Source of the DNA: Dehalococcoidia bacterium
GTDB taxonomy: Bacteria > Chloroflexota > Dehalococcoidia > Lucifugimonadales > SAR202-VII-2
NCBI GenBank assembly: GCA_965226745.1
Contig: CBDDDS010000005.1
Location: 18,389 to 82,388 of the forward strand
Length of the DNA stretch: 64,000 bases
Direction: 5' to 3'
The translations under genes were made by a program, and so were the position numbers. Of the stretch, positions 4,206 to 31,096 are shown in pieces. The notes beneath the pieces are model-generated. The model had not been told where the DNA came from, did not search any database, and saw only the letters and a list, made by a program, of their open reading frames with translations. Position 1 is the first letter of the stretch. Each line of letters opens with the position of its first letter.

Positions 4206-5129
4206 GTGCAGCGCTACATAGCCGGAAGAGTCTTCCAGAGCCTGATCACCCTGCTCGTCGTCAGCGTGATTGTCTTTGCCCTGGGCCGCATGATGGGGAA
4301 TCCTCTTGACGTGCTGCTGCCCATAGACGCCTCCCCAGAACTTCGTCAACAAGAAACCGAGCGGCTGGGCTTGAACGAGCCTTTCTTTGTTCAGTACGGC
4401 CTGTTCATCAGAGACCTGGCCACCGGCGATCTGGGAACCTCCATCCGCTCCAAGCAGCCTGTCTTGGACCTGCTGGTCTCCCGCCTGCCCGACACCCTGC
4501 AACTCGTGGGCCTGGCAATGGCGATCGCGCTGCTTGTCGGTTTCCCTCTGGGCGTGCTGGCGGCGACGCGCAAGGGAGGCGTCTGGGACCTCGGCGCCCG
4601 CGTCGTGGCCCTCTTTGGCCAATCCATCCCATCCTTTTGGGGTGGCATCATGCTCATCCTCATATTCTCGGTGACCCTGGAGCTCTTGCCCGTGGGACGG
4701 AACCAGGGCTTTCAGTACACTATCCTCCCAGCCGTGACGATAGCCTTTTTTGGCTTCATCATGGCCGGACTGGTGCGTCTGCTCCGAGGTTCCATGATCG
4801 AAACGTTGGACAGCGAATACGTCAGATTTGCCCGGATAAAGGGAGTGTCGGAGCGGGTTGTTGTTTGGAAGCACGCCCTCAAGAACGCTCTCATTCCCGT
4901 TGTCACCTTCCTTGGCTTCTACTTCGGCATCCTCATTGCGGGCAGCGTCGTTGTTGAAACGGTCTTCGCCTGGCCCGGCGTCGGCCGGCTGGCCTACGAG
5001 GCCGTCCAGTGGCGGGACTACCCAGTCATCCAGGGCGTGGTCCTCCTGATCTCCGGCTTCATCCTGCTCTCGACTCTGGCGGTGGACATCCTGTACGCCT
5101 ACCTGGACCCAAGAATTCGATTCCGATGA
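4206..5129 (+). CDS. ABC transporter permease, DppB/OppB-like
   Basis: GTG start after AGGAG. The N-terminus MQRYIAGRVFQSLITLLVVSVIVFAL and six TM segments are typical of the peptide/nickel ABC permease family. Confidence 0.9.
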   Translation: MQRYIAGRVFQSLITLLVVSVIVFALGRMMGNPLDVLLPIDASPELRQQETERLGLNEPFFVQYGLFIRDLATGDLGTSIRSKQPVLDLLVSRLPDTLQLVGLAMAIALLVGFPLGVLAATRKGGVWDLGARVVALFGQSIPSFWGGIMLILIFSVTLELLPVGRNQGFQYTILPAVTIAFFGFIMAGLVRLLRGSMIETLDSEYVRFARIKGVSERVVVWKHALKNALIPVVTFLGFYFGILIAGSVVVETVFAWPGVGRLAYEAVQWRDYPVIQGVVLLISGFILLSTLAVDILYAYLDPRIRFR

Positions 5130-18157: not shown

Positions 18158-19417
18158 ATGACTTCGGCCGGGCCTGCAAGGTCATCGGGAGGCGCCGGAG
18201 ACGGCTTCACCCGGTTGGGCAACACCCATCTGCTGTTGGCCTACGTCGCAGGCACATTCAGTTTCAGCTTCGCCCTGATTGTCACGTTCCTCCTCCCCCT
18301 GCGAGCGCGGGAGTTGGACATGCCGTTGGTCCTCATTGGCTTCCTCATCGGCGCCGGCTCGCTCGTTGCCGCCGTTACCAGCATCCCGTCCGGAGCACTG
18401 GCGCAGCGCATAGGCCCGCAGCGCGTGTTCGTCCTAGGGGCCGTCCTGTGCACCGCCCTTGCCGCCGTCATGGGCCTCACGACCAGCTACGTGGTCTTGT
18501 TCCTCATTCAATTAGGTTTGGGGGCGGCCAGGACTTCCGCATGGGTCGCCATCCAGACCTACATCACCAACGTTGGCCACCCCTCCCAGCGCGTCACCAT
18601 CACGGGACGCTTCAGCTTCGCCACAAACGTCGGGACCATGGTGGCCCCGTTGCTCATCGGGCCAGCAGCCCAGTTCATGGGCTATAAGGACGGCTTTTTC
18701 TTCATCGCCGCCGTCGCCCTGTTTTTTGTTGTGATTGGCTTGGTGCTCAAGCCAATCACCCTGCCCCGCGCCGCGCCCAACAGCACCCAGGGGTCCTCCG
18801 CTGGCTTCTCCGCGGCCTACCACCAGGTCCGTCTCGTGGGGATACAGATCGCCGTCATCCTCACCTTCGTGCGCGTCTGGTACCAGACCACCTGGACCGC
18901 CTTCTTCCCGCTCTTTCTCATCGAGGGCGGCATGCCCGAGGGAGTGGCCGCCACCGTAATCTCCAGCACCTCAGTCGTGGCGACGGTGACGGCGCTCGGC
19001 GCAGGCAGGGCCGCCAAGCTTGGCAGCCGTCCCGCGGTCGCTGGGGGCTCCCTTGCGATAGGCGCTCTATCCCTGGTCATCTCCCCGCATCTCACGGCGA
19101 TACCCCAGGTGTACCTCATATCGCTGCTGTACGGCGTCGGCGTGGGCATCAGCCTCCCCCTGCTCCTCGCCATGTTCAGCGAGGAGGCCCCACCCGGCGG
19201 GCGCGGTGTGGCCATGGGGGTGCGCACGAGCGGCAATCAGGTGGCGGCCCTGACCGCCCCCTCTGCCAGCGGGGTCATCATCACTGCGGTTGGAATAACC
19301 CTCGGCTTCCTGGCCAGTGGGGGCGTCGCCCTGTTGCTCGTAGCCGTTGCGCTGGGTCTGCACAGAGGCAGAACGCGCCCGCAGCGGCCAGCCTCCCCGG
19401 AACCCGGCTCACTCTAG
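18158..19417 (+). CDS. MFS transporter
   Basis: 419 aa with about 12 hydrophobic segments and a two-fold pseudo-repeat architecture. The start codon is uncertain. Confidence 0.8.
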   Translation: MTSAGPARSSGGAGDGFTRLGNTHLLLAYVAGTFSFSFALIVTFLLPLRARELDMPLVLIGFLIGAGSLVAAVTSIPSGALAQRIGPQRVFVLGAVLCTALAAVMGLTTSYVVLFLIQLGLGAARTSAWVAIQTYITNVGHPSQRVTITGRFSFATNVGTMVAPLLIGPAAQFMGYKDGFFFIAAVALFFVVIGLVLKPITLPRAAPNSTQGSSAGFSAAYHQVRLVGIQIAVILTFVRVWYQTTWTAFFPLFLIEGGMPEGVAATVISSTSVVATVTALGAGRAAKLGSRPAVAGGSLAIGALSLVISPHLTAIPQVYLISLLYGVGVGISLPLLLAMFSEEAPPGGRGVAMGVRTSGNQVAALTAPSASGVIITAVGITLGFLASGGVALLLVAVALGLHRGRTRPQRPASPEPGSL

Positions 19418-20620
19418 CGCCCCATCCTCCACCAGCCGGTCGAAGCGCTCCTGCGACATCCCCAGCAGTTGTCGCAGCGCGTATTCCGTGTGCTCCCCCA
19501 GAAGCGGCGCCCGCCGATAGTCCGGCCGGGTCTCCGAAAGCGTGAAGCAGTTCCCGTCCATGGCGTAGGCCCCAATCTCAGGGTGAGCAAGAGTTGCGAA
19601 ATGCCCCCGCTCCCTGAGCTGAGGGTCGGCGAAGAGGTCAGCGCAGCTCTGAACGACGCCCGCGGCGACGCCCCCCTCCTGGCACCGGGCCATGACCTCT
19701 TGAGCCTCCAGCCCCGATGTCCACGCCCCCACGGCTTCATCCAGGGCATCCTCGTTGGCCTTTCTGGCCACAAGCCCCGCGAAACGAGGCGCCCGCGCCA
19801 GTTCCGGATGTCCCATGATCCCAGCCAGCGAGGCCCATTGCTCGTCGTTGGCGCAGGCGATAGCGCACCACCGGTCCTCGCCGCTGCAGGGGTATACGCC
19901 GTGCGGGGCCATTGCCGGATCCCGGTTGCCGTCTCTCGTCCCCACCCTGCCGTTGACGGTGTAGTCGAGGATCGCTGGCACCAGAAATTGCAGCGACGCC
20001 TCCAACTGCGACATGTCCAAGTGCTGCCCCATGCCCGTCTCCCTCCTCGTCTCCAGGGCGGACGTTATGGCCGCCACCGCCACGTGGGGAATCACGAAGT
20101 CCGTGTAGGCGCCGTAGGGACTCACCGGCGCCCTGTCGGGCCAGCCGGTGTAATGCGTATGGCCCGAGATGGCGGTCAACACCGGCCCAAACCCCGGCTG
20201 CGCCTCGTAGGGCCCGCCGCGGCCCATCATCGAGGCGCTGAACATCACCACCCCCGGGTTCACCTGAGAAATATCCTCATAGCCGAGCCCCCACCGCTCC
20301 ATTGTCCCCGGCGTGAAGTTCTCAGCCACCACGTCCGCCCACGACGTCGCCAGCTCAAAGGCCACTTCCCTCGCCGCTGGATGGGCCATGTTCAGAGTGA
20401 GGCTGAGCTTCCCGCCGTTGTAGTTGACCCAATACCCGCTGCGATTGACCCCCGGACGGCCCCCGGCGAACGGCAGGCCGCTGCGGATGACGTCGGGCCG
20501 ATGCCGGGACTCGACCCGCACCACGGTCGCCCCGAAATCGCTGAAGTACCGTGTCGTCATCGGGCCCACGGCCACCCAGCAGAAGTCGAGCACGTTCAGC
20601 CCCTCGAATGCCCCTGCCAT
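19409..20620 (-). CDS. CaiB/BaiF family III CoA-transferase
   Basis: LNVLDFCWVAVGPMTTRYFSDFGATVVRVES at the N-terminus and ...RRAPLLGEHTEYALRQLLGMS... at the C-terminus are typical of family III CoA-transferases. Confidence 0.85.
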   Translation of the reverse strand: MAGAFEGLNVLDFCWVAVGPMTTRYFSDFGATVVRVESRHRPDVIRSGLPFAGGRPGVNRSGYWVNYNGGKLSLTLNMAHPAAREVAFELATSWADVVAENFTPGTMERWGLGYEDISQVNPGVVMFSASMMGRGGPYEAQPGFGPVLTAISGHTHYTGWPDRAPVSPYGAYTDFVIPHVAVAAITSALETRRETGMGQHLDMSQLEASLQFLVPAILDYTVNGRVGTRDGNRDPAMAPHGVYPCSGEDRWCAIACANDEQWASLAGIMGHPELARAPRFAGLVARKANEDALDEAVGAWTSGLEAQEVMARCQEGGVAAGVVQSCADLFADPQLRERGHFATLAHPEIGAYAMDGNCFTLSETRPDYRRAPLLGEHTEYALRQLLGMSQERFDRLVEDGALE

Positions 20621-20623
20621 CCC

Positions 20624-22032
20624 CTAGATCACTCCCCGTCCACGCAGCCCGTCGAGGTCGGCGGCCGTCAGTCCCAGCGACCCGTACACCTCCTCGTTGT
20701 GCTCGCCAAGCCTGGGCGCCCTTCTGGCGACGCACATGGCCCCAGCGCTGGACCGCGCCCAGGGCCCTAGCAGGCTGCGGAAGAAAGGTAAGGCGCTCAG
20801 TCGCAGTGTATGGAGCCTCAACTGTCTCGGCGGCATTCGGCATGTGATAGGCCAATTCGAATAATTCGTTCAGAACACGCGATAGGACGGCGTTTATCGT
20901 CGGACAGTTTTTGGCCCTGGGTAGACAGCAGAGTTTTTCCGCAGCCTGCTAGAGTTGTCATCGGCGCGCCGTCGGGGCCATCTACTTGGCGAAAGAAGCC
21001 GCGGGCCGCAAGCTGTGGATACTCCAGCACGTCAGCCGGGTCGTTGACCGGAAACAGCAGGATGCGCCGCTCCAGGGCCTCCGCCGACAGATAGCGTTTG
21101 CTCTTCGAGCGAAAGAAGAGGCCCAGGGCCTTGTCCATCGCCTCCATGAGCGCGTCGGGCGCCTGTCCGAACCCGAACTCCCCGAAGTCCGCCTCCCTCA
21201 GCGCAGGCTCCCCGAATCCCTCCTCCTCCATCCAGCGGCACAACGCCGCCATCGTCCGGCCTCCGGTCTTCCCGCCCGGCTGCAGAAAGTTCACGTAGCC
21301 GTCGGCGCACTCCCAATTGACCCGCATCTTCTTGCCCCCACCGACCTGACGGAACGGCCCGCTGCGCTCTAGCACGGTCCCCTCCATGTACCAGAACTGG
21401 GGCGCGTGAGCCAGCGTCCGGGCCATCGCCTGCTGGCACGACACGTCTGCATGTTGGCCCCGCCCCGTCTGCACACGCTGTTGGAAGGCAACCATCGCCG
21501 CCGCCGCTCCCGCGGCACCCCCCAGCAGCCAGAACTGGGGAATGCTGACCCTCAGTGGTGGCCTGTCCGCATCGCCGGTCAGGCGCATGAACCCGCCCAT
21601 AGCCGCGCCCGTCAGGTCCGTGGCGGCCAGGCCGCTGTGGGGGCCATCCTGCCCAAAGGGCGTAATGGACACGTAGATCAGGCGGGGGTTCGCCCGGTGC
21701 AACTCCTCATATCCAAGCCCAAGGCCGGCGAGGTAGCCGGGCCGGAACGACTCGATGAAAAAGTCGGCGGCGCCCACGGCCTTCAGGAGCAGCTCCCGCC
21801 CAGCTTCCTGCTCGATATCGAGGGTCACGCCCCGTTTGTTGCAGGCGTAGGCCTGCCAGAACAGGCTGTTCTCCGGCCCCGGGTCGTCTTGGAAGAAAGG
21901 GCCTTGGCGTCTGGCGGGGTCGCCCCAGGGAGGCTCGACCTTGATCACATCGGCGCCAAGGTCTCCCAAGACGCGGCCGCAGAAGATCCCGCGGTCGTCG
22001 GCCATGTCAATAACGCGGTAGCGCGAGAGCAC
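20624..22032 (-). pseudogene. CaiB/BaiF family III CoA-transferase interrupted by a MITE-like insertion
   Basis: The 404-aa ORF (20818-22032) reads into lower-GC DNA and stops. The conserved C-terminus LGPWARSSAGAMCVARRAPRLGEHNEEVYGSLGLTAADLDGLRGRGVI lies in another frame (20624-20836). Deleting 20768-20949 joins the two parts in frame. Confidence 0.75.
20767..20952. mobile_element. MITE-like non-autonomous element with its duplicated CTAG target
   Basis: CTAGCAGGCTGCGGAA at 20767-20782 is the exact reverse complement of TTCCGCAGCCTGCTAG at 20937-20952. The interior is visibly AT-richer and has no transposase ORF. CTAG is present at both ends. Confidence 0.7.
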
Positions 22033-24298: not shown

Positions 24299-25372
24299 AT
24301 GCCAACACCGAAGGTCTTCGTGTTTGCCCCGGCAGACAACAGCGGCGAGTCCCATCGCATGCTGGAGGCCGCCGGATGTCAGCTCGCGTTCGGCAAGAAC
24401 GCCTGGCTCACCCCCCAGGGCAGCAACGAAGAGGAAATGCTCGAGATGGCCCAAGGGGCCGACGCCCTCATCGGCACGTCCATTCGCAGCACCCCGATAA
24501 CCCGCAGCATCATGGAGGCGTCGGAAACGCTGCGCATCGTCGCCAAGTACACCATTGGGGTTGACGACGTGGACCTTGACGCCGCAACCGAGTTGGGCAT
24601 CCTCGTTACCCACGCCCCAACGGAAGCCAACTGGGGGGGCGTCGCCGAGGGCGCCGTGGGCATGATGCTCAACCTCCTGAAGAAATTCCCGCAGCGGGAC
24701 AAGTCCGTCAAGAGCGGCGGTTGGCGCCGCGACGACCTGATGGGAACCTACGTCGGCGCCCGCGCCGACGGCTACGGCGGCATCACCATCGGTATCGTCG
24801 GGCTGGGCCGCGTCGGCAGCCGATTCGCCCATCTGCTATCCCCCTGGAAGGCGCGCCTTATTGCCTGTGACCCCTACCTCCCCGACGAGCGCTTCGCCGA
24901 GCTTGGCGTGGAACGCGTCGATTATGACGCCGTCCTGCGCCAATCCGACGTCCTGTCGTTCCACGTTACGTTGACGCCCGAGACCCACCATATGCTCGGC
25001 CTCGCCGAGATTCGGAAGATGAAGCCCTCCGCCGTCCTCATCAACACCTCCCGCGGCGCCGTCGTCGACGAGGCGGCCCTCATCCAATCCCTCGACGAGG
25101 GCGTCATCGCCGCCGCCGCCCTGGACGTCATGGAAGAGGAGCCGCCGCATCCCGGCAACCCGCTCCTCAAAATGGGCGACAATGTCCTCTTATCGCCGCA
25201 TATGGTCTCCGCCAATCAGGACTCCTCCAGCGGCCACCTCGGCCCAGGCATCAGATGGGCCACCGACGCCGTCCTCAGCGCCCTCCGCGGCCGCGTCCAC
25301 GACAACGTCTTCAACCAAGAAGTCATTCCCCGCTGGCTGGAGCGGTTCGGGAAAAGGGACCTGCTGGGCTAG
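24299..25372 (+). CDS. D-isomer-specific 2-hydroxyacid dehydrogenase family protein
   Basis: Start moved to the ATG at 24299 after GGAGGG. NAD-binding motif GIVGLGRVGSRFA, plus NTSRGAVVDEAAL and ...LSPHM.... Confidence 0.85.
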   Translation: MPTPKVFVFAPADNSGESHRMLEAAGCQLAFGKNAWLTPQGSNEEEMLEMAQGADALIGTSIRSTPITRSIMEASETLRIVAKYTIGVDDVDLDAATELGILVTHAPTEANWGGVAEGAVGMMLNLLKKFPQRDKSVKSGGWRRDDLMGTYVGARADGYGGITIGIVGLGRVGSRFAHLLSPWKARLIACDPYLPDERFAELGVERVDYDAVLRQSDVLSFHVTLTPETHHMLGLAEIRKMKPSAVLINTSRGAVVDEAALIQSLDEGVIAAAALDVMEEEPPHPGNPLLKMGDNVLLSPHMVSANQDSSSGHLGPGIRWATDAVLSALRGRVHDNVFNQEVIPRWLERFGKRDLLG

Positions 25373-26169
25373 GGCGCTGCCGAGGATGGCGAGGCTTCGC
25401 CATTGGCCACTTCTCCGTCAGGAAACGCATATCTCAGTGTTCTGAGGTGATTCTTCAGGCGCTTGGCCATTGGCCGCATCGTTGCCGCTGTTACGCTGGC
25501 TGAGAAGACGCCCCCTATGACCGGGACCACCTTGGCCACTCCTCCAGCAAATCCCCGTTTCGTAACAGAGACCCCGATCCACTTGCCTACCTGCTTCACG
25601 ATGGGATAATACCAAGTCTTCGTGAGCGCCTGCCGCGGGAGACGCCGGACAGTCTGTTCAGCGAACCGCTTAGCCAATTCTGCCAATGTCCCCTTAGCCA
25701 TCGCGGCACCCAACATTGCCCCGATAAGCAACGTTAGCTGAAGCTCTGTTTGCTCATCGACCTCGCCTTCTTCAAGCAGGTCGGGCCAACCGTACAGGTA
25801 TGCCAGCTTCTGGGCCATAACCAGTGCGTGCCAGTAGAACTGCGCCATATCGGCAGGGATTGTCCCTGCCATGGCAAATCCGCCCGGCACGCCAGCGGCA
25901 AACGACGCCCCGGATGCCAAGAGCACGTGCCGCCTAATGCAGTCATCCGCCAACTTGTCGATAAGGTCAGGCGATATGCCCGCCGAGGCAGGCCTGCTCA
26001 GAATCGCTTGCAGGACCTGCTGGTTATTGCAATGGCTCTTGAGTTGGGATGCGAGATATGAGGCTCGGTCCAACTTGGCGCCGGGGAGAGCCATGGACGC
26101 CATCAGTATTCTCTCCCACACTTTCTCGCCTCTGGATCTTGCCGGTAGGTGCTCGGATGTCATGTTCAC
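25369..26169 (-). CDS. EcsC-family protein
   Basis: ...ASGASFAAGVPGGFAMAGTIPADMAQFYWHALVMAQKLAYLYGWPDL... matches the EcsC pattern. The GC content is lower than that of the neighbours. Confidence 0.6.
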   Translation of the reverse strand: MNMTSEHLPARSRGEKVWERILMASMALPGAKLDRASYLASQLKSHCNNQQVLQAILSRPASAGISPDLIDKLADDCIRRHVLLASGASFAAGVPGGFAMAGTIPADMAQFYWHALVMAQKLAYLYGWPDLLEEGEVDEQTELQLTLLIGAMLGAAMAKGTLAELAKRFAEQTVRRLPRQALTKTWYYPIVKQVGKWIGVSVTKRGFAGGVAKVVPVIGGVFSASVTAATMRPMAKRLKNHLRTLRYAFPDGEVANGEASPSSAAP

Positions 26170-26220
26170 GGTCTCCTTGGATGTGCTTGCGGGAGTATAC
26201 TCGCGAGGAAGGGGATCTCA

Positions 26221-26262
26221 CCCTTCCCCCGCAGCCAGGGGCAGGTTAGGTTAGGATGGGGG
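26221..26262. repeat. REP-like intergenic repeat, variant copy
   Basis: CCCTTCCCCCGCAGCCAGGGGCAGGTTAGGTTAGGATGGGGG shares the CCTTCCCCC / GGGGCAGG / GGTTAGGATGGGGG blocks with the other copies. Confidence 0.5.
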
Positions 26263-27262
26263 CCGCGCAACAACTGGGCGCGCCAATGATCTATGCCACC
26301 CAAGGCGAGTACGCGCCTATGCCAACAATCCAATTCGGCGTTCAATACAATGGCATCGCCATGGCCGGCCTGGAGAACCCTCTGGACTTCGCCGAAAGGA
26401 TGGAAGGCCTGGGTTACCGCTCCTTCTTCGTCCCGGATATCGAAACCCTGCCGGTGCTCGACCCCCTGGTCCTGCTGGCGGCCGTGGCCCAGCGCACCCG
26501 CCGGATGCGGCTGGGCACTGGCGTCCTCGTCCTTCCCTTCCGCAGCCCATATCAGTTGGCCAAGGCCGTCGCCTCCCTCGATGTCCTTTCCCAGGGGCGC
26601 GTTGTGCTTGGCGTGGGGTCGGGCGGCATGTTTCCCAAGGACATGGAGGTGGAGGGCGTTCGGATGGAAGACCGCCGGTCATTGACCGACGAGCGCCTAG
26701 AGCTCGTCCGGCGGCTGCTTTCCGAAACGAGCGTCACGCATTACGAGCGTTCCACCACATGGACGACGCGACGTTGCAGCCGCGCCCTGCGCAGCAGCCC
26801 AACCCGCCGATCTGGACGGGCGCAATGTGGAACAATGGCTTCGCCAGGCACCCTCTTGAGCGGACGGCGCGTTGGGCCGACGGGTTTCACCCCAACGGTA
26901 TGCCTGCGCAGGCCTACGCAGAGGCCAAGGACATCATCAGCGAGTCGGCAGCCTCCCTCGGCCGGGACCCCGCTGCCCTGGAATGGTCCTGCAACATCTA
27001 CCTCTGCATGGGGCCAACGAAACAGGCGGCATTCCAGGAGGCCGAGAGGGCCATGGTCCAACGATACGGCGGCGACGCCTGGGACATTGACCCCGCGACC
27101 CTCATCCTAGGACCCGTCAGCGAGTGCGTGGAGACCATCGAGGAGTTCGCCGCCGCCGGCGTCACCCACTTCACCATCAACCCTCTCTGCGAACAGCCCA
27201 CCCTGGTGGCGAACTTCGAACAGTTTGCCGCCGAGGTCATCCCACACTTCGAACGCCGTTAA
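26256..27262 (+). pseudogene. LLM-class flavin-dependent oxidoreductase with a -1 frame break (or an assembly error)
   Basis: The N-terminal part (...FFVPDIETLPVLDPLVLLAAVAQRTRRMRLGTGVLVLPFRSPYQLAKAVASLDVLSQGR...) is in frame 0. The C-terminal part (MDDATLQPRPAQQPNPPIWTGA...THFTINP...) is in frame 2. The switch lies at about 26745-26752 (..THYER|FHHMDDA..), which is consistent with one missing nucleotide. Confidence 0.7.
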
Positions 27263-30412: not shown

Positions 30413-30452
30413 CCGCATCCCGGCGGCACGCCACGCGAAAGTCGCATCCCAG

Positions 30453-30506
30453 CCTTCCCCCGAGTACGGGGGCAGGGACAGGGGGATTAGCCGGGGGAAG
30501 GTTAGG
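30453..30506. repeat. REP-like intergenic repeat: forward unit plus an inverted half-unit
   Basis: CCTTCCCCCGAGTACGGGGGCAGGGACAG at 30453-30481 is followed by CCGGGGGAAGGTTAGG at 30491-30506, which is the inverse of CCTAACCTTCCCCCGG. Confidence 0.7.
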
Positions 30507-30561
30507 CCTTTGATTGTATGCTCGTAACGATTATCAGCCGGACTTCGGGGTTTGCAGGCAC

Positions 30562-30619
30562 GGAGCCGTTACGATTCGTTACGGAGCAGTTACTAGTCGT
30601 TACGGAGCCGTATGGCTCC
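30562..30619. repeat. 21-bp tandem repeat (about 2.7 copies) with GTTAC phased every 10-11 bp
   Basis: Units are GGAGCCGTTACGATTCGTTAC, GGAGCAGTTACTAGTCGTTAC and GGAGCCGTATGGCTCC. GTTAC occurs at 30568, 30578, 30589 and 30599. The last unit forms the hairpin GGAGCC-GTAT-GGCTCC. Confidence 0.65.
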
Positions 30620-30851
30620 AAAGAGCTTGTCTCGCAACGGCATTCGCTCTGGTCCCACCATTCCTCGGACGGTTGTGCGCCTGGGGGAACATCCCTCAGC
30701 GCCCCTGCCACAGGGGCATTCTCTACGGATTCCCCCAGTATAAATGTATGCGGCAGGCTCCAAGGAAGAGAAGCGGGCCGGGGGCCCACTTCGTGGGGAT
30801 ACTATAGCACAATCGTTCGCATTTGGCAAGTAGGGGAGGGGCAGAGGGGAA

Positions 30852-30891
30852 CCCCTTCCTAACCTTCCCCCGAGTACGGGGGCAGGGACAG
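30852..30891 (+). repeat. REP-like intergenic repeat, full unit
   Basis: CCCCTTCCTAACCTTCCCCCGAGTACGGGGGCAGGGACAG is 39/40 identical to the copy at 35173-35212. Confidence 0.8.
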
Positions 30892-31096
30892 AGCTACTCC
30901 CGGCGGGGGCTGCGCCCCCTGCACCCTGCTCGGGGACGGCGGGCGCGCCGTTTTCTCACCTTGGCGCGTCTGGACGCTTCCTTGCCTGCCCCCCACCCCG
31001 CCCCTCTCCCCCGGCTAGGCGTTGACGCGTCCGCCGACCATGCATATTATGCAGGCAGCCGAATGGCAACCCCGCCATCAAACACCGGAGGAGTCC

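Follow-up and report, generated by a model that had tools for sequence, protein, structure and literature searches.

An IS5-type miniature inverted-repeat element at a CTAG site in a family III CoA-transferase gene of an uncultured Dehalococcoidia bacterium

Results

The DNA analysed here, referred to below as the window, is a stretch of 64,000 nucleotides (64 kb) from a Dehalococcoidia bacterium (assembly GCA_965226745.1, contig CBDDDS010000005.1, positions 18,389 to 82,388), in which two adjacent genes for family III CoA-transferases lie on the minus strand, the first of them being interrupted by a short non-coding insertion that we interpret as a MITE (miniature inverted-repeat transposable element) of the IS5 type. 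A preliminary description, made from the sequence alone, had pointed to a 404-aa open reading frame (ORF) that ends within an AT-richer segment, and to the survival of the family C-terminus as a separate 70-aa ORF; both are as described in the ORF list. The truncated ORF comprises 361 native residues followed by a 43-residue tail encoded by the element, and the short one begins at an ATG inside the MITE, with 23 element-encoded residues, before continuing into the orphaned final 47 CoA-transferase codons. The downstream paralog is intact and starts 3 nt past the native stop of the interrupted gene. All coordinates are collected in Table 1.

The CoA-transferase could be restored in silico. Removal of 182 nt (20768-20949) opens a frame of 408 aa in which ...GAPMTTL is joined to GPWARSS..., as had been proposed, and five equivalent 182-nt deletions each give the identical protein. 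The repaired protein fits the family of the CaiB/BaiF/Frc CoA-transferases over its full length (Pfam CoA_transf_3, PF02515, 270.6 bits, model positions 4-366), whereas with the truncated ORF the match (model positions 4-341) stops short of the 366 positions of the model. The insertion point is a CTAG at codons Leu361-Gly362, and the 47 residues lying beyond it hold the family-invariant G362, R377, P379, G382, E383 and H384. None of the NCBIfam equivalog models reached its cutoff with the repaired protein; some of its homologs are named BbsE by JGI.

Table 1. Features of the interrupted CoA-transferase locus (positions in the window; IRL and IRR, left and right inverted repeats of the insertion sequence (IS) described in the text)
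Feature	Positions	Strand	Evidence
Target-site duplication, copy 1 (CTAG)	20767..20770		Direct CTAG on both sides; family-wide flanks; single CTAG in L122
MITE body, 178 bp	20771..20948	-	No counterpart in orthologs; 98-99% identical copies at unrelated loci
IRR-matching terminal repeat CAGGCTGCGGAAGAA	20771..20785	+	15/15 vs the IS end (final 15 nt) in L118 and L112
IRL-matching terminal repeat CAGGCTGCGGAAAAACT	20932..20948	-	17/17 vs IS start in L118; 16/16 vs L112
Target-site duplication, copy 2 (CTAG)	20949..20952		Direct CTAG; family-wide flanks; single CTAG in L122
Truncated family III CoA-transferase ORF	20818..22032	-	ORF list and Pfam; stop codon within the MITE
70-aa ORF	20624..20836	-	ORF list and orthologue comparison; contains RRAPRLGEH
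Intact paralogous CoA_transf_3 gene (403 aa)	19409..20620	-	ORF list, comparison; immediately downstream, 28% identical

The inserted segment is bounded by the perfect inverted repeats reported previously, CTAGCAGGCTGCGGAA at 20767-20782 and its exact reverse complement at 20937-20952. No other perfect 16-nt inverted repeat spaced by 30-400 nt occurs in the window, where first-order Markov simulations gave a chance expectation of 0.025 on average. With the CTAG included, the repeat is 19 nt long and 95% complementary, i.e. with one mismatch (20767-20785 and 20934-20952), the plus strand at 20767-20785 reading CTAG CAGGCTGCGGAAGAA; inside the CTAG duplication, it comprises 12 perfect or about 15 imperfect nt, the termini of the MITE being CAGGCTGCGGAA(A/G)AA. 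The preliminary description had counted the CTAG into 16-bp terminal repeats and into an element of 186 bp. The repeats and the insertion both stand, but the CTAG belongs to the duplication, so that the terminal repeat proper measures 12-17 nt and the element proper 178 bp, the outer CTAG lying outside the terminal repeat. In the orientation of the IS described below, 20948 marks the IRL-like end and 20771 the IRR-like one.

The element is indeed richer in A and T than its surroundings (52% GC vs 64% for the window) and devoid of a transposase, as previously stated: its ORFs, of at most about 60 codons, gave no Pfam match. When 20500-21200 was compared with Rfam under a permissive E-value, only chance matches to miRNA and pseudoknot models were returned, and no second copy of the element was found within the window. 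A strong hairpin was predicted for the MITE (z about -4), while a single weak site resembling a promoter and a single small hairpin of the terminator type, both within the element and antisense to the gene, were not considered meaningful. The ATG from which the 70-aa ORF starts (20834-20836) reads outwards, and ORFs in the sequence past the IRR-like end acquire from it an identical leader of 23 residues, MPPRQLRLHTLRLSALPFFRSLL. Spurious ORFs that begin with this leader are found beside copies of the element in loci L021 (655-1137) and L003 (4242-4526); it is a recurrent source of chimeric gene calls.

Uninterrupted counterparts of the site were found in related genomes. The closest database match to the repaired protein (P0001, 408 aa, 97% identity) is encoded in a locus, L001, that is collinear with the window over more than 20 kb at 95-96% nucleotide identity, and at the insertion position the 182-nt insertion is the only local difference between the two. 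The cluster formed at 90% identity contains nine intact 408-aa orthologs on other contigs, and the 404-aa form occurs only in the window's genome. Where the window reads ACT CTAG [178 bp] CTAG GG CCC, the ortholog in L122 reads ACC CTA GGG CCT, with one CTAG at the exact position; L001 has a synonymous variant, ACC CTG GGA (CTGG). Between the window and L001, the ratio of nonsynonymous to synonymous substitutions (dN/dS) of the repaired gene is 0.096, with dS at 0.125, compared with 0.04 to 0.42 for neighbouring genes, and the repaired gene contains no further frameshifts or stops. Because of this low dN/dS and the lack of additional lesions, the insertion is probably younger than most of the divergence between the window and L001; it looks recent and, among the sampled relatives, is private to the window's genome.

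Further copies of the element, which the preliminary description had anticipated, were found both in the same genome and in other Dehalococcoidia assemblies. One of them, L120, was reached through protein P0298, which carries an element-encoded stretch; it is 98.9% identical, flanked by CTAG on both sides and located some 2.6 Mb away from the window's insertion, on the same contig (3.33 Mb). Over all 178 bp, the copies in L021 and L003 are 98.9% and 97.8% identical to the element of the window, and L121 holds two near-identical copies (within the 97.8-98.9% range together with L021 and L003), each flanked by CTAG; those in L029 and L099 are full-length at about 71% identity each. Eight Dehalococcoidia copies align from end to end while their flanks are unrelated. 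At the protein level, a query with the six-frame peptides of the element retrieved at least 68 predicted proteins with element-encoded stretches from public assemblies.

Some of these copies lie in particular genic contexts. In the Dehalococcoidia metagenome-assembled genome that contains L003, the same MITE is inserted exactly at the TAG stop of a 475-aa ORF (4458-4460), where the CTAG duplication regenerates the stop codon, making this insertion silent. Copies of the window's subfamily are often fused into, or located beside, defence-type genes (proteins P0241-P0308; L121), including six restriction-modification specificity subunits (PF01420), ATPases of the AAA_15, AAA_21 and OLD-TOPRIM types, and a DpnII-MboI neighbour. 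The two copies in L121 are 650 bp apart within such a defence-type gene region.

The ends of the element are far more widespread than its interior. A scan of GTDB genomes with the pattern CAGGCTGCGGAA-N140-170-TTCCGCAGCCTG revealed at least 106 loci with the same 12-nt ends; among the matches listed, to which the counts given below for flanking bases also refer, about 80 were from Acidobacteriota, 10 from Bdellovibrionota, 9 from Dehalococcoidia/Chloroflexi and 7 from Alphaproteobacteria/proteobacteria. The same 12-nt ends are thus common to MITE subfamilies with unrelated interiors in at least four phyla. A 26-mer specific to the window's subfamily gave 0 matches in a scan of JGI metagenomes. 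In the literature searched, the terminal sequences turned up only by coincidence, in unrelated primers, and the family to which the MITE belongs may not have been described before.

The bases lying just outside CAGG...CCTG were compared for 104 same-end elements with both flanks. The 4-bp flanks were identical in 47 of them and differed by one base in 29 more, whereas shuffled pairing of the flanks gave 9.6 identical pairs, with a maximum of 20; at flank lengths of 2, 3, 5 and 6 bp, only 4, 1, 2 and 0 identical pairs were seen. The 47 identical tetranucleotides were CTAG (11), TAAA (10), TTAA (7), TTTA (5), CTAA (3), TTCA (3), TTAG (2), TGAA (2) and others (4), mostly of the YTAR (Py-T-A-Pu) or TNNA type. 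Of the 13 copies of the Dehalococcoidia/Chloroflexi type, including that of the window, 10 had CTAG on both sides, and the other 3 had YTAR with one mismatch. This identity over 4 bp across the family indicates that in the window, too, the duplicated target is 4 bp long, namely CTAG, and that the element proper spans 20771-20948; it also excludes a TA duplication of the IS630 type.

A few copies (L031, L040, L048 and L090) had 4-mers that were inverted instead of direct. Moreover, 21 of the 104 elements had flanks that form inverted repeats of 8 bp with at least 7 matching positions, against 3.4 expected, as in Acidobacteriota loci L024 (3723-3905), L017 (2155-2332) and L027 (1176-1368) and in the Chloroflexi locus L087 (4783-4968). 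One example, GGCGGGGC-TTTA[element]TTTA-GCCCCGCC, corresponds to a GC-rich hairpin with the element inserted in its 4-nt loop. Hairpins that have the same loops (TTCA, TGAA, TTTA or TAAA) but no insertion are common in these loci, and some of them lie inside other MITE copies, giving rise to nested insertions. The insertion of the window itself is in coding sequence, with no hairpin, and hairpin targeting is an observation made on its relatives.

The ends of the MITE are also those of a complete insertion sequence, the kind of autonomous parent that had been sought. Full-length copies of 1343-1348 bp occur at eight loci, L111-L118 (seven distinct insertions, for example 1436-2778 of L118; two copies are adjacent and inverted), with IRL CAGGCTGCGGAAAAAC and IRR CAGGCTGCGGAAGAAT, which the MITE matches over 17 and 15 nt, respectively. 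Their flanks are CTAG/CTAG in L112, L113, L117 and L118, CTAA/CTAA in L116 and TTAG/CTAG in L111, and TTAA and CTAG for the adjacent inverted pair L114/L115. The transposase encoded by this IS has 367 aa, with the Pfam domains DUF772 and DDE_Tnp_1; its representative P0135 scores 259.8 bits on the NCBIfam model of the IS5 family (NF033581, cutoff 140) and remains below the cutoff of the IS1182 model (223.7 vs 270). Six of the places that carry the IS come from a single sample, and in L114/L115 (ERZ25068511 ctg61043) two full-length copies stand head to head, about 185 bp apart; together, this pair and the six places in one sample indicate a recent burst of the autonomous element.

IS copies were also found at other loci and on a plasmid. 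In L016 (Falsiroseomonas), a 1499-bp unit with CAGGCTGCTGAA ends encodes a 376-aa DUF772+DDE_Tnp_1 protein, and in L057, a Dehalococcoidia chromosome, a copy of the IS found in L111-L118, with matching IRL and IRR and starting TTAG|CAGGCTGCGGAAAAACTCT, lies 135 bp from a MITE, homologs of its transposase being abundant. A plasmid of Methylocella tundrae carries a related IS annotated as "IS5 family transposase", with ctag/ctag flanks; the plasmid homologs bear no more specific annotation than this. Among the loci examined for long-range pairs of the terminal repeat, real IS copies were delimited only in L016 and L057. Most such pairs (L054, L105 and others) were rejected, as what lies between them is ordinary genes or nested MITEs, with no transposase. 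The IS5-like element of L001 (820-1794) was likewise rejected as a parent: its ends are different (GAGACCTTTG-type) and its transposase is 25% identical to that of the partner family.

Discussion

Taken together, these results are best explained by an IS5-type MITE bearing the ends of a 1.34-kb IS5-family IS, which was mobilised in trans and integrated at a CTAG of the family III CoA-transferase gene, a reading to which we assign a probability of about 93%. From a mechanistic point of view, an IS5-family DDE transposase supplied in trans would bind both ends of the MITE and integrate it through a staggered 4-bp cut at the CTAG tetranucleotide, which would thereby be duplicated; the CoA-transferase frame now enters the element and stops after 43 foreign residues. 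The existence of copies 98-99% identical at unrelated loci and the polymorphism in presence and absence of the element suggest that the MITE has been mobile recently.

Several points nevertheless weigh against this reading. No IS5-type transposase with these ends is encoded within the 64-kb window. The interior of the MITE shows no similarity to the IS past the 15-17 terminal bases, and an origin of the MITE by internal deletion of the IS therefore cannot be claimed. Both records in which the truncated protein occurs go back to a single contig of one assembly (ctg125183, ENA analysis ERZ28763718), present in ENA as well as in NCBI, and are not independent of each other. Finally, this is a long-read assembly, and a 1-nt indel located 6 kb away, which is probably a homopolymer error or a pseudogene lesion, shows that small errors are possible in it.

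The last two points speak for an alternative in which the element is a repeat mis-joined into the gene during long-read metagenome assembly, the real gene being intact. We consider such an artefact very improbable, since the element is exactly delimited and the 4 bp perfectly duplicated around it occur just once in the empty site, since the same architecture is found in independent copies, in other assemblies and elsewhere on the contig, and since mis-joins do not produce target-site duplications. A 182-nt insertion with a perfect duplication is indeed different in kind from the small errors of long reads.

Just as improbable is a segment that is tolerated or functional, whether as an intron-like or recoded insertion, or as a split of the gene in which the ATG of the element drives expression of the C-terminal 47 residues, so that a two-piece enzyme works or coupling to the paralog is kept. 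It is true that the ORF starting at the element-borne ATG reads the orphaned C-terminus in its original frame up to the native stop, 3 nt before the start of the paralog, and that the gene shows no further decay. However, such a shared frame has a one-in-three probability by chance, a recent insertion would not yet have led to decay, the same ATG leader stands atop obviously spurious ORFs at other copies, and no convincing Shine-Dalgarno sequence was found upstream of the ATG. As for an intron or RNA element, group I and group II introns need more than 178 bp, no Rfam match supports it in 20500-21200, and the segment is absent from all orthologs.

Least likely of all is a MITE of the IS630/Tc1-mariner type inserted at the TA within CTAG, i.e. 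a 180-bp element starting with GCAGG and ending with CCTGC with a duplication of TA only: IS630 is known to target CTAG, and at this one palindromic site a 2-bp TA and a 4-bp CTAG duplication are indistinguishable, all five deletions being equivalent, but the direct 4-bp repeats TAAA, TTTA, TTCA, TGAA and TTAA that adjoin CAGG...CCTG in relatives are incompatible with a fixed G/C base and a TA duplication, and full-length elements with these ends (GCAGGCTGCGGAA) encode the IS5-family DUF772+DDE_Tnp_1 transposase, not a DDE_3/IS630 one. The preliminary description had left the choice between IS5 and IS630 types open; the 4-bp duplication and the partner transposase retain the former and dismiss the latter. 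In its essentials, the interpretation given there is otherwise borne out.

The IS5-type MITE of the window can be compared with characterised systems. The partner IS resembles IS5 of E. coli and the IS5 group in its size of about 1.3 kb, its single ORF, its imperfect terminal repeats of about 16 bp and its transposase, which combines an InsH-type N-terminal domain (DUF772) with DDE_Tnp_1 and matches NF033581. Its terminal sequence, CAGGCTGCGGAAAAAC, differs from that of E. coli IS5, which is GGAAGGTGCGAATAAG, and its family has other hosts, namely Dehalococcoidia, Acidobacteriota and others. The element of the window further differs from IS5 in being a 178-bp non-coding derivative and not the IS itself. 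IS5 duplicates Py-T-A-Pu, most often CTAG (PMC5493358), and the same 4-bp duplication with a preference for CTAG is seen in the family of the window, whereas in Acidobacteriota copies it is often TAAA, TTTA, TTCA or TGAA instead of strict YTAR.

Prokaryotic MITEs described so far include the IS-related MITEs of Pseudomonas syringae and Porphyromonas gingivalis, the Correia elements and RUP (PMC10969869). The element of the window shares with them its small size, terminal inverted repeats, target duplication and lack of a transposase, and its family shares the many copies, the ends held in common with an IS, the predicted hairpin and the frequent fusion to ORFs; it belongs to a different sequence family, and Correia and RUP elements differ from it by their TA duplications and their relation to other IS families. 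It is a textbook MITE of the IS5 family, assigned to the IS5 group by its target and by the model that the partner transposase matches.

Such an insertion has consequences for annotation. The apparent split or pseudogene is explained, as the 404-aa and 70-aa calls are one CoA-transferase cut by a mobile element; the appropriate annotation is one disrupted gene instead of two genes. The gene is most likely inactivated, because the final 47 codons with their invariant residues are orphaned. The situation recalls BbsE/BbsF, a two-subunit family III CoA-transferase, in that two paralogous genes are adjacent; for the pair of the window, unlike BbsE/BbsF, a heteromeric partnership is suggested by adjacency alone. 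The downstream paralog is a possible partner subunit of the interrupted CoA-transferase, and its expression may be affected by polarity. If the two adjacent CoA_transf_3 genes do form a BbsEF-like two-subunit enzyme, then the entire enzyme would be affected.

At the scale of the lineage, IS5-type elements and their MITEs appear to be currently active in these uncultured Dehalococcoidia, where they generate presence/absence polymorphisms between strains as well as chimeric ORFs, including the proteins reported above (at least 68), with their element-encoded tails or leaders. The conserved ends CAGGCTGCGGAAAAAC ... TTCTTCCGCAGCCTG, together with the repeated YTAR, offer a simple signature for masking a repeat that is widespread in soil and sediment metagenomes. 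The insertion itself is an ordinary mobile-element event, which leaves the current understanding of transposition unchanged, and only the breadth of the family and the hairpin-loop insertions in Acidobacteriota, both observed in relatives, are mildly unusual.

Those two aspects lead to a wider proposal, which we regard as tentative and on balance doubtful. The element of the window may belong to a large, apparently uncatalogued superfamily of MITEs mobilised by a single lineage of the IS5 group, the ends of which (12-16 nt) would have stayed nearly unchanged across Chloroflexota, Acidobacteriota, Alphaproteobacteria and Bdellovibrionota, with integration in Acidobacteriota preferring the 4-nt loops of GC-rich hairpins, including hairpins located in other copies. 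If this were true, integration would be directed by DNA structure and not purely by sequence. IS1397 and ISKpn1 are IS3-family elements that insert into REP or palindromic sequences. The Acidobacteriota copies similarly occupy palindromes, in the form of hairpin loops, with the difference that an IS5-type family is concerned here and that the insertion of the window itself lies in coding sequence.

Other differences from L001 were observed in the neighbourhood. An IS5-family element distinct from the one discussed above as partner is present in L001 (632-2493, facing 30425-30985 of the window) and absent from the window; it encodes a 324-aa DUF772+DDE_Tnp_1 transposase (820-1794), with candidate terminal repeats at 740-768 and 1924-1952. 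With this IS in L001 and the MITE in the window, at least two independent insertions of the IS type therefore differ between them within 20 kb. About 940 nt of the window (25375-26314) are replaced by 53 nt in L001 (6594-6646). This segment carries a 266-aa ORF (25369-26169, minus strand) next to a 2-hydroxyacid dehydrogenase gene, and represents a strain-specific gene gain or loss. The 1-nt deletion mentioned above (GG to G, at about 26746) frameshifts a luciferase-like monooxygenase gene (Bac_luciferase, 314 aa in L001), which is then a second pseudogene, unless the deletion is a homopolymer error of the long reads. Lastly, a conserved intergenic stretch of about 375 nt is enclosed by two 35-nt direct repeats (94% identical) at 30447-30891. 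It contains TTGCCA-N17-TATAGT, which resembles a promoter, as well as tandem motifs similar to CCGTAACG, and gave no Rfam, tRNA or tmRNA match; it may represent a small RNA not yet characterised or a further repeat element.

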